IMG/VR virus record: IMGVR_UViG_3300020215_000050
Span: 1-21,494 of that record
Strand: one strand, 5' to 3'
Origin: a virus
Length of the DNA: 21,494 bases
The translations under genes and the position numbers were made by a program. Under the pieces are notes generated by a model. That model saw only the letters and a program-made list of their open reading frames with translations, had not been told where the DNA came from and ran no database searches. Of this stretch, positions 1,459-8,624 are shown piece by piece (position 1 is the first letter of the stretch; each line of letters begins with the position of its first letter).

Positions 1459-1533
1459 TGGAGGGACCGGCGGGAGTCGAACCCGCTTTGGTCGGATTGA
1501 AAGCCGATGCATTGCCACCACTGCCACGATCCC
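1459..1533 (-). tRNA. tRNA with 8-nt anticodon loop CTTTCAAT (Glu TTC, TCA or quadruplet; identity undetermined)
   Basis: Acceptor GGGATCG/CGGTCCC-T-CCA; D-arm GCA-GTGGTGGCAA-TGC; TCGG-CTTTCAAT-CCGA; canonical T-arm GCGGG-TTCGACT-CCCGC. Confidence 0.8.
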
Positions 1534-4333: not shown

Positions 4334-4534
4334 TTACTTCTTGGCGACCGGAGCCGGGGCAGCAACACCGACCGGGGTGTTCGTGACCTTGCGGAGCCAC
4401 ATGACGACGCCGCCGATGACGACCATCGCGAGGTCGGCATACTCAGCCGGAATGATCTGCGCGAGGTCTGCAGCCTGAATGCCTCCGAGGAACGCGATCA
4501 GCGCGCCGAAAGCAATCGTTCTCCAACCTTTCAT
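4334..4534 (-). CDS. small two-TM membrane protein, putative holin
   Basis: 66 aa, two hydrophobic helices, basic C-terminus; late promoter upstream and terminator downstream. Confidence 0.7.
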   Translation of the reverse strand: MKGWRTIAFGALIAFLGGIQAADLAQIIPAEYADLAMVVIGGVVMWLRKVTNTPVGVAAPAPVAKK

Positions 4535-4768: not shown

Positions 4769-4915
4769 GCTTGAGGGCGGGGATGCCGGGAGCTACCCGG
4801 CTTCACGTCGTGAACCCCTGTCACTAGCCCGTGGCGACCGGGCGTGGAGGGTGCTTGTCAAATCGGCAGCGTCTCAGCTGCCGAACAGAGGGCCGATGCC
4901 CTCGCATCCTCCAAT

Positions 4916-4993: not shown

Positions 4994-4999
4994 TTTGAC

Positions 5000-5103
5000 T
5001 GGTGGAGGTCGGGACGCTTGGCCTTCGCGTTGCCCGACTGTTCTCTCGCGATGAAAGAACTCCGTCGATTCCGCCCGTTTCTGATGGGCTCCTCTGTCGC
5101 TCC
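5000..5103 (-). ncRNA. 104-nt CCA-ended tRNA-mimic-like RNA of unknown class
   Basis: Fills the gap between tRNA-Asn and tRNA-Leu; 5' GGAG pairs with the 3' CTCC-A-CCA; three internal hairpins; no TTC T-loop. Confidence 0.55.
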
Positions 5104-5111
5104 ATAAAATT

Positions 5112-5190
5112 TGGCTCCTCCTCTTGGAATCGAACCAAGCTAGTTTCGGTTTAACAGACCGCCGCGTGCACCTTGCTCGCCTTAGGAGGA
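5112..5190 (-). tRNA. tRNA-Asn(GTT)
   Basis: TCCTCCT/AGGAGGA-G-CCA; CGGT-CTGTTAA-ACCG; CTTGG-TTCGATT-CCAAG. Confidence 0.9.
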
Positions 5191-5191
5191 A

Positions 5192-5281
5192 TCGGCGCCG
5201 AGGGAATCGAACCCTCCCGAGAACTCCGGTCCGGAGCTAAGGGGGTATAAGTCCCTCCCGCACTGACCAGTGCTGACGCCA
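5192..5281 (-). tRNA. tRNA with TAT anticodon (Ile AUA) and long variable arm, no encoded CCA
   Basis: TGGCGTC/GGCGCCG acceptor; D-arm GCACT-GGTC-AGTGC; loop CT-TAT-AC; variable stem AGCTCCG/CGGAGTT; GAGGG-TTCGATT-CCCTC. Confidence 0.8.
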
Positions 5282-5295
5282 TCAAACTCGCGACT

Positions 5296-5325
5296 TATAT
5301 ATCCCGCAAGCCGCTAACCTGTCAA
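5296..5325 (-). promoter_or_regulatory. sigma70-type promoter TTGACA-N18-TATATA heading the tRNA operon
   Basis: -35 at 5320-5325; -10 box 14 nt upstream of the first tRNA. Confidence 0.65.
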
Positions 5326-7294: not shown

Positions 7295-7683
7295 TTCCTC
7301 ACTCCGAATATGACGGTCCAGCCGACGGCGGGTATGCGGCTCGGACTGTCGCGCGCGATGCGTACGTAGGCCCGACGGTCCCGATGCTCATACACGATGT
7401 GTCGCGGGGTGTTCTCCATCAGGTACCACGTCCCGTCGCCCTCGAGGTAGCGCTCCAGGGACCTCGCCCCCAGCTCAGTCATCAGCACGATGCTCGTCGA
7501 TACGCGGCGCTCCAGGGTGCCCGACACGACGTGGACGGCGAGGTTGAGGCAGTCGCGAACCCATTCCCTCATCTTGGTCGGCGAGTCGAGGGGCATGAAT
7601 GGGGGGCCGGAGTATCTCTCCGGCCTCCAGTTTCGTTCGTTCCGCCTGTCCAAGACGTCCCGGCTGGTGTTCCTCAGCCTCAT
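7291..7683 (-). CDS. hypothetical protein, paralogue of 6899..7294
   Basis: 130 aa from the ATG at 7683 (ATGA overlap with the DUF932 stop). Confidence 0.78.
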   Translation of the reverse strand: MRLRNTSRDVLDRRNERNWRPERYSGPPFMPLDSPTKMREWVRDCLNLAVHVVSGTLERRVSTSIVLMTELGARSLERYLEGDGTWYLMENTPRHIVYEHRDRRAYVRIARDSPSRIPAVGWTVIFGVRK

Positions 7684-8624
7684 GACGCGTCGGCGTACTC
7701 CTTCGCCTTCGTCAGGGCCTCGAGCTTGCGGCCGCGGTTCGTGCCGTACCAGCTGGAGACCAGCCGGCTGTCGTCGTTCTGACCGAGCTCGTGGTCGGCC
7801 ATGTACGTGACGGCGTTGAACGCCTGCCACCAGCTGCCCTTGGCGAAGTTCGCTCCGGGCTGCTTCTCGACGGTCTCGATCGCCGCCTGGGCGTGCCGGC
7901 TCATCTCCTTCTTTCCGCCGCGGTTGCTCGTCAGCGGGAAGACCTCGTTGAAGTAGCTCACCAGGGTGTCCTGGGTGTACTTCTTCGAGCCGAGGAACTT
8001 CGCGATCTCGCGGTAGTCGGCGAACTTGACGTGGGCGATGCCCAGCAGCTTCTTCGCCTCCTCGGGGTCGAACTTCTTCCGGTGGTTGAGGGTGATCATC
8101 TTGTCCGCGTGCTTCGACAGGGACAGGGTGAGCGTGTTCCAGCACACGACCCGGATCGGCGTCATGCGGACGTCGAGGGCGTGGCCGAACCGGTGCGGGT
8201 TCGTAAAGAGCAGGTAGTTCTCGACCTGGTCGCCGCGGAAGAGCTCGAACGTCTCCTTCACCTTGGCGAGGCACCACACGATCTGTCCGCCCTTGAGCGA
8301 GCCGGCCGTGTGCATCTCCATGTCGCCGGCCATCACGAACTCGTGGAAGAAGTCGAACGCCTCCTGGTTCTGCACCGGGTTCCAGGCGTCCGTCACGACG
8401 TCGAGCTGCTTGCCGTCGCTCGAGCGGACGAGGGCGGCGTGGCCGGTCTCCTCCTCCTGCATCGTCACCGGGTTGGAGATGGTCGCGGGGACCTTGACCA
8501 CCTTCCAGTCCAGCTGGGCGGCCTTGAGCATCTGCCGGGGCGTCAGGTCCGCGGGGACCTTCTTGCCCAGGCCGTGCCAGGGCACCTGGCCGGCGTACGC
8601 CATCGTCTCAACTTTGTGGGCCAT
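7680..8624 (-). CDS. DUF932/DUF945 family phage protein
   Basis: MAH.VETMAY..VPWHGLG, PVQN.EAF.FF, AGSL.GG, TPIRVVC.NTL and GSWWQAFNAVT motifs; AAGGAGG RBS. Confidence 0.92.
   Translation of the reverse strand: MAHKVETMAYAGQVPWHGLGKKVPADLTPRQMLKAAQLDWKVVKVPATISNPVTMQEEETGHAALVRSSDGKQLDVVTDAWNPVQNQEAFDFFHEFVMAGDMEMHTAGSLKGGQIVWCLAKVKETFELFRGDQVENYLLFTNPHRFGHALDVRMTPIRVVCWNTLTLSLSKHADKMITLNHRKKFDPEEAKKLLGIAHVKFADYREIAKFLGSKKYTQDTLVSYFNEVFPLTSNRGGKKEMSRHAQAAIETVEKQPGANFAKGSWWQAFNAVTYMADHELGQNDDSRLVSSWYGTNRGRKLEALTKAKEYADAS

Follow-up and report, generated by a model that had tools for sequence, protein, structure and literature searches.

tRNA genes and other features around the unit

The stretch of DNA analysed here (hereafter the window) comprises 21,494 nt, positions 1 to 21,494 of a 123-kb IMG/VR record (IMGVR_UViG_3300020215_000050) that is ca. 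74% complete and has a GC content of 61%. This genome carries several T4-type genes, namely those of the gp43 polymerase, the gp41 helicase, UvsX and the gp44 clamp loader, and the phage is present in several soil metagenomes; none of the sequencing runs listed for the stretch is an RNA run. Among the sequences searched, the best match of its DNA polymerase is at most 47% identical and that of its DUF932 protein (PF06067; gene at 7680-8624, minus strand) is at most 63% identical. Judging from its genes, the phage is an orphan lineage of T4-like soil phages.

All tRNA genes detected by ARAGORN in the window are on the minus strand, and the tRNA region, which extends over ca. 10 kb, contains 17 ARAGORN-called tRNAs with small ORFs interspersed. 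Reading along this strand, tRNA-Ile(UAU) with its long variable arm (5276-5191, ARAGORN) is followed by tRNA-Asn(GUU) (5190-5112; ARAGORN, and 29.6 bits with Rfam), by a CCA-ended tRNA-like unit of 104 nt (5000-5103) that was delineated from its sequence, its fold and its identity in other assemblies, by tRNA-Leu(GAG) (4993-4916; ARAGORN, and 46.2 bits with Rfam) and, past a structured gap of 147 nt, by tRNA-Leu(CAG) (4768-4692). The CCA is encoded in both tRNA-Asn and tRNA-Leu(GAG). The unit starts 8 nt past the encoded CCA of the former and ends 6 nt ahead of the latter, a position already proposed in a first-pass annotation of the sequence and confirmed here by ARAGORN and by the sequence itself. 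The 8 nt represent an AU-rich leader (AAUUUUAU, 5104-5111, minus strand) with a U at position -1, and the 6 nt correspond to a trailer, GUCAAA (4994-4999, minus strand). The DUF932 gene is located 2.6 kb upstream of the unit. An encoded CCA occurs in 17 of the 20 tRNAs called by ARAGORN in this phage, so that its presence in the unit marks the latter as being of the tRNA type. The only flag raised between tRNAs by a terminator scan corresponds to the anticodon arm of tRNA-Leu itself.

Several neighbouring features deserve a description of their own. The tRNA-Ile(UAU) (5191-5276, minus strand) displays a long paired variable arm, has no encoded CCA and abuts tRNA-Asn with a zero spacer; the sole model that it matches is that of tRNA-Sec, at 23.6 bits, and its copy in soil run X7 (see below) has diverged, with 6 differences in 45 nt. 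Immediately upstream of this gene, an AT-rich box (TATATAAG, 5294-5301, minus strand) is similar to late promoters of the T4 type (TATAAATA); on this basis, the transcript that would contain the unit has a candidate start here. About half of the phage tRNAs have a GGAG or GGAGG located 3-8 nt past their CCA (for instance at 4908-4912 of the window), and in several cases a small ORF that starts ca. 14 nt past the tRNA has its ribosome-binding site there. This tRNA-SD-ORF layout is recurrent in the phage, both in the window and in a 20-kb stretch of a 189-kb assembly of the same phage (L176), and the GGAG found at the 5' end of the unit is therefore not special by itself.

Elsewhere in the array, a tRNA with an 8-nt anticodon loop occurs at 1459-1533 (minus strand), for which ARAGORN gives the anticodon UUCA and Rfam a tRNA score of 42.4 bits. 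Beyond the start of the window, a 118-nt gap between tRNA-Val and tRNA-Lys (L176:18419-18536) contains a canonical-looking T-arm (GGUGGUUCGACUCCGCC), ends in ...CUCCA and may be a further uncalled tRNA-like gene. A gene encoding a 66-aa membrane protein is found within the tRNA array at 4334-4534 (minus strand). Homologues of this protein, 49-68% identical, are confined to unrelated phages, in which they lie within blocks of structural or lysis-type genes and, in one case, two genes past a CHAP-domain gene; on these grounds the product may be holin-like.

Sequence and predicted structure of the unit

The unit is read from 5103 to 5000, its nucleotide p being window position 5104 - p, and all the features described in this section lie on the minus strand. 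Its overall outline is that of a four-way junction resembling a cloverleaf, in which an acceptor-like helix is accompanied by three hairpins. The acceptor-like helix is formed by GGAG (nt 1-4, 5100-5103) and CUCC (nt 97-100, 5004-5007), which pair with a probability of 0.96-0.98, and the 3' strand is followed in the sequence by a discriminator A and the encoded CCA (5000-5003), together making an RCCA end. In the position of a D-arm, hairpin 1 (5073-5089) pairs GCCC with GGGC (15-18/28-31; probability 0.99) and has a 9-nt loop without GG; directly after it comes the motif GGAAUCGACGG (nt 32-42, 5062-5072). Hairpin 2 (5040-5060) occupies the position of an anticodon or variable arm and consists of 8 bp, GUUCUUUC/GAGAGAAC (44-51/57-64; probability 0.99-1.0), with a closed loop of 5 nt, AUCGC, that offers no usable anticodon. 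Hairpin 3 (5008-5038), in the position of a T-arm, is made according to the fold and the pair probabilities of 6 bp, GUCGGG/CCCGAC (66-71/91-96), a 2-nt bulge, 4 bp, ACGC/GCGU, and a 9-nt loop, GAAGGCCAA; its 3' strand meets the acceptor 3' strand with a gap of 0, as would a T-stem, and the T-loop motif is absent.

The minimum free energy (MFE) structure of the unit, at -37.3 kcal/mol (z = -2.17 versus dinucleotide shuffles), includes all of these helices. It contains 26 base pairs, of which 25 are Watson-Crick, and the third pair of the acceptor-like helix is A3-U98, that is, A3-U70. The GGAG/CUCC-A-CCA end, the stacked GUCGGG/CCCGAC and ACGC/GCGU helices and the two extra hairpins that the first-pass annotation had listed were all recovered in this structure, with pair probabilities of 0.84-1.0 across the unit.

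The 147-nt gap between the two tRNA-Leu genes (4769-4915, minus strand) folds more strongly than the unit, with an MFE of -71.4 kcal/mol and a z-score of -3.2 to -3.5, and has no match in Rfam. A three-way junction occupies its first ca. 70 nt; GGAGG/CCUCC closes this junction, and A-CGCC comes next. A GGAG...CCUCCAC frame is thus common to this gap and to the unit, the gap being devoid of CCA.

Occurrence of the unit in other assemblies and genomes

The same phage was found in three further assemblies, namely a 189-kb ENA contig, a Logan contig and a JGI contig, none of which shows any difference in the unit (four assemblies in total). Contigs of four soil runs were further aligned to the stretch. 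Those of run X3 span the whole unit with 0 differences, one base differing elsewhere in the stretch. Run X7, which belongs to another study and another year, contains a 272-nt contig that joins position 5114 directly to 4993; its tRNA-Asn is identical at 72/72 positions and its tRNA-Leu(GAG) at 78/81, and the flanks outside the tRNAs are unrelated. The 120-nt segment absent from this contig (4994-5113, minus strand) corresponds to the unit, both of its spacers and the CA of the Asn CCA. That it is missing as a block indicates that the gain or loss of the unit concerned its entire slot, and also that the unit is dispensable for that relative.

Searches with nhmmer and blastn-short detected no homologue of the unit, and a blastn comparison of the region with 50,697 phage records returned matches only to tRNAs. 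When viral contigs were scanned for the motif GGAATCGACGG..CTCCACCA, 14 matches were obtained, all due to chance and located in coding DNA. The 3' 20-mer of tRNA-Asn, taken as an anchor, had 0 matches in viral and metagenome contigs and a single chance match in coding DNA of an Acidobacteriaceae MAG, with no tRNA at the site; a 20-mer of the unit likewise gave one chance match in metagenome contigs, in a bacterial coding region. As for the proteins encoded nearby, an 86-aa protein matches only itself, and homologues of the 66-aa protein and of a 95-aa protein occur in unrelated contexts.

A covariance model built from the unit, R1, was run over the 123-kb genome, the 20-kb stretch of the 189-kb assembly, 80 related loci (0.96 Mb) and five distant relatives with complete sequences, and in none of them did it find anything but the unit itself. 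Where acceptor pieces of permuted tmRNAs scored 12-13 bits (E values of 1.8-3.9 over 0.96 Mb), the matches are regarded as noise. The covariance-model search yielded no family members, and the new ncRNA class that the first-pass annotation had thought possible cannot be claimed since no second, diverged copy was found. For the same reason, covariation speaks neither for nor against the fold. In the distant T4-like loci analysed here, 5 of the 44 inter-tRNA gaps hold units with an acceptor helix plus CCA that are not called by ARAGORN.

Relationship to tRNAs

The unit has the discriminator and 3' CCA of a tRNA and sits in a tRNA array; it has neither the 7-bp acceptor stem (4 bp here), nor the 5-bp T-stem, the T-psi-C loop, G18G19 or the 7-nt anticodon loop that carries U33 and, at 37, a purine. 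By manual inspection, an alternative register of hairpin 2 that provides a 7-nt loop retains only 4 pairs. No match to RF00005 occurs on 5000-5103, whether at the gathering score or at E up to 10, ARAGORN makes no call over the unit, even with introns allowed or the threshold set at 60%, and a search of the unit against Rfam at E up to 10 matched no family. These results, together with the missing T-loop, GG-containing D-loop and 7-nt anticodon loop, rule out that the unit is a tRNA. The first-pass annotation had expected from Rfam and ARAGORN either nothing or a partial tmRNA match; no match to a tRNA, a tmRNA or another family was obtained, and every detector tried agrees with its central statement that a discrete, structured, CCA-ended unit that is neither a tRNA nor a tmRNA fills this tRNA slot. 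An origin by duplication of a neighbouring tRNA was also rejected, the similarity to the phage's own tRNAs not being significant (best p = 0.015 in 26 comparisons).

A looser kinship would be that of a decayed or rearranged tRNA, or of a functionless by-product, that is still excised between two tRNAs; the ancestor was perhaps a class II tRNA, the long variable arm of which became hairpin 2 while the anticodon arm was lost. We regard such a relic as unlikely, although the arms do follow each other as in a cloverleaf and the 1-nt gap between hairpins 2 and 3 equals that between a variable arm and a T-arm. The neighbourhood is also compatible with decay, in that it includes aberrant or low-scoring members (tRNA-Asn with its 29.6 bits, tRNA-Ile(UAU) and a Tyr-like unit that match only the tRNA-Sec model at 22-24 bits), and the X7 relative does without the unit. 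Against this stand the lack of significant similarity to the phage's own tRNAs, the silence of RF00005 and of ARAGORN under the relaxed settings given above, and the state of the unit itself: none of its 26 pairs (25 Watson-Crick) is disrupted and it retains its CCA, neither of which would be expected of a drifting relic.

Comparison with chance structures

An ordinary structured spacer, or a leader of tRNA-Leu, could carry a CCA and a terminal helix by coincidence. GC-rich DNA folds well by chance, the z-score of the unit is only -2.17 and, as seen above, a GGAG past a tRNA is common in this phage. A pattern was defined for a 118-nt spacer in which an NCCA lies 3-12 nt from the end, a Watson-Crick helix of 4 bp is formed with the first 12 nt, and a hairpin of 6 bp abuts directly. 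Of 246,328 118-nt windows of the phage's own genome, those over the unit among them, 71 show this slot-fitting pattern (2.9e-4), as do 25 of 300,000 shuffled versions of the spacer (8e-5). With a looser definition, in which the 5' strand may lie anywhere 60-125 nt upstream, 22 of the 4,382 CCA sites in the genome qualify. Because the strict pattern is rare and the loose one is found 22 times, most of the weight is borne by the fit to the slot: taken by itself, the fold energy is no more than mildly unusual, and the slot architecture is much rarer. A frequency of ca. 1e-4 to 3e-4 for the full pattern amounts, over the ca. 20 spacers of the array, to well under 1%, and we hold a mere spacer or leader to be improbable.

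Relationship to tmRNAs

The first-pass annotation had likened the unit to the tRNA-like domain of tmRNA, a likeness that stands for one motif and for the order of the elements and fails for the rest. Indeed, GGAAUCGACGG matches the tmRNA D-loop analogue GGAUUCGACGG at 10/11 positions, and the succession of acceptor, motif, closed helix, hairpin and acceptor-ACCA parallels a tRNA-like domain in which P2 is capped. The unit has no 7-bp acceptor stem and no canonical T-arm, and the absence of a G3:U70 pair, of a T-loop and of a tag ORF, which the annotation had itself remarked upon, was verified, the pair being A3-U70. Models of standard, permuted and mitochondrial tmRNAs (RF00023, RF04321, RF01849-51 and RF02544) have no match on the unit at E up to 10, and ARAGORN in tmRNA mode produced nothing credible at a lowered threshold. 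As a positive control, RF00023 scores the 83-nt CDS-less tmRNA of mycobacteriophage DS6A at 43.2 bits. Reverse-complemented, the motif GGAAUCGACGG is also a T-loop (UCGAUUCC), which explains opposite-strand matches to T-arms in blastn-short searches. The D-loop analogue GGAUUCGAC of tmRNAs is placed directly past the acceptor strand; in the unit, GGAAUCGAC is present, 28 nt from this strand and behind an extra hairpin.

In many distant T4-like uncultured phages (among L016-L095), a circularly permuted two-piece tmRNA is located 0.5-3 kb downstream of a DUF932 gene (PF06067), as exemplified by L022:6233-6631, L040:12668-13094, L068:11858-12209 and L052:7565-7904, with tags that include ANDERFALAA; these are recognised by the Rfam beta, alpha and permuted models at 92-161 bits. 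No tmRNA gene was found in the 123 kb of the present phage, nor was an SmpB gene or a gene for a CCA-adding enzyme. A two-piece tmRNA of which the 147-nt gap would be the coding piece was considered and rejected, with no match to a tmRNA model and no plausible tag frame (frames were read by eye).

We have to weigh whether the unit derives from a tmRNA reduced to its tRNA-like domain and titrates SmpB, EF-Tu or AlaRS. Besides the motif and the order of the elements, this would agree with the 3' end of the unit, CCCGACCUCCACCA, which resembles that of a phage tmRNA, CCCCACCUCCACCA (L052), and with the presence of permuted tmRNAs downstream of the same DUF932 gene in the distant T4-like phages. 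A precedent is on record, in that the CDS-less mini-tmRNA of phage DS6A inhibits the host tmRNA according to PMC11915505, which cites Mao et al. 2009. A derivation of this kind is nonetheless very unlikely given the A3-U70 pair, the 4-bp acceptor stem, the missing T-loop, the extra hairpin inside the "D-loop" and a motif that is also simply a reversed and complemented T-loop. RF00023, which detects the DS6A tmRNA, and the permuted models are silent at the unit, ARAGORN makes no credible tmRNA call, and no SmpB gene accompanies it in the 123 kb. The tmRNA-mimic idea of the first-pass annotation is not supported. Finally, a protein-coding reading is out, since the sole frame across the unit (AUG at 5105, 47 codons, running into tRNA-Leu) has a GC3 of ca. 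52% by manual third-position count versus 0.81-0.97 in the genes scored nearby and no gene was called at the unit in three independent assemblies.

Proposed expression and role of the unit

The interpretation that we favour, with moderate confidence, is that the unit is the gene of a non-decoding tRNA-like small RNA which belongs to the phage tRNA operon and is freed by tRNA processing, in the manner of T4 RNAC and RNAD. It builds on what was directly observed: the sequence has the architecture described, chance rarely produces it, and the unit failed when tested as a tRNA or a tmRNA. From this we infer the co-transcription, processing and stability of the unit RNA. A minus-strand transcript would comprise the unit together with tRNA-Ile(UAU), tRNA-Asn and the two tRNA-Leu genes, and the host tRNA-processing enzymes would release the unit from it. 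A segment lying between two tRNAs in one precursor is freed when RNase P generates the 5' ends of the tRNAs. At the unit, RNase P would cut before G1. The substrate has a U at -1, its G1 is paired to a C, its acceptor helix is stacked on a hairpin, and it ends in RCCA. A further RNase P cut, just ahead of the downstream tRNA, would leave a tail of 6 nt, which exonucleases would trim until stopped at the encoded CCA beside the duplex. With an acceptor stem of only 4 bp and no T-loop, the unit is unlike the best bacterial RNase P substrates, which counts against the proposed processing; the modest z-score of the fold, the failure to find a diverged homologue and the absence of the unit from the X7 contig also count against the interpretation as a whole. 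With the loop of its middle hairpin sealed at 5 nt, the product of the unit cannot read codons.

As to its role, our leading guess is that the unit RNA, by its tRNA-style end, would divert a protein that reads acceptor-CCA ends, whether as a competitor or as a decoy; an enzyme of a tRNA-targeting defence could be such a protein. This fits with the fact that phage tRNAs counter tRNA-targeting defences (PMC10264068, PMC11464382, PMC11555353). Non-decoding tRNA look-alikes are natural candidates for a part in this arms race, and the unit would be an extreme case, reduced to the CCA, a short acceptor helix and the hairpin stacked on it. A more specialised version, which we consider rather doubtful, is that of a T-loop-less mimic of the tRNA or tmRNA end, purpose-made as a minimal decoy to occupy a host factor that reads acceptor-CCA, on a scaffold unlike the catalogued tRNA-like RNAs; candidate targets would be SmpB or EF-Tu, RNase P itself, or a defence enzyme that modifies the CCA or cleaves tRNAs. 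As an orphan of a single lineage, the unit is a lead rather than a result.

Comparison with known tRNA-like RNAs

The non-decoding tRNA-like RNA favoured here can be compared with four kinds of known molecules. With canonical and class II tRNAs, the unit shares the four-way junction, the order of the arms, a stem in T-position that abuts the acceptor strand, the discriminator with CCA and the slot in the array, but it is devoid of T-psi-C, G18G19 and a 7-nt anticodon loop and has an acceptor stem of 4 bp. RNase P also accepts as a substrate the acceptor/T-arm minihelix, and phage RNAs that it processes include the C4 RNA of P1 and P7 and the CI RNA of P4. The unit has in common with these substrates a helix stacked on a hairpin, an RCCA end and a G at +1; in contrast with minihelices, its acceptor strands are split by three hairpins and its stack is of 4+6 bp, rather than 7+5 bp with a T-loop.

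The CDS-less tmRNAs of phage DS6A (NC_023744, 28478-28560) and of jakobid mitochondria (PMC11915505, PMC3590771) are short and have a tRNA-style acceptor end, like the unit, and their central helix is likewise capped and a tag frame is likewise absent; a GGNNUCGAC-type motif follows their acceptor strand, and a resembling one lies 28 nt past that strand in the unit. The tmRNA of DS6A is, in addition, phage-encoded, as is the unit. It differs, however, by its 7-bp acceptor stem, its G3:U70 pair and its canonical T-arm, GAGUUCGAUUCUC, where the unit has 4 bp, A3-U70 and no T-loop.

Extra stable RNAs have been known in phage tRNA clusters since the 1970s, with RNAC and RNAD of T4. RNAC (species 1, NC_000866 70908-71046) and RNAD (species 2, 71053-71171) are 139 and 119 nt long, versus 104 nt for the unit, and their roles remain unknown (PMC3014915, PMC9697503). 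The T4 genes rnaD and rnaC, located 1 and 6 nt past their upstream neighbours, are found at the end of the tRNA cluster, whereas the unit is placed between two tRNAs. RNAC keeps a canonical T-arm (GGGUUCGAAUCCC) that the unit does not have, and no similarity in sequence or by covariance model links rnaC or rnaD to the unit, the only shared motif being, by reading, a UCGA core. RNAD ends in ...GCACC followed by A, and the ends of RNAC are tRNA-like. All three are non-tRNA small RNAs encoded 1-8 nt from their neighbours, on the same strand, in a T4-type tRNA cluster, and they are presumably co-processed with it. Among the non-decoding tRNA-like RNAs of phage tRNA clusters, the unit is rated as having a distinct, T-loop-less scaffold.
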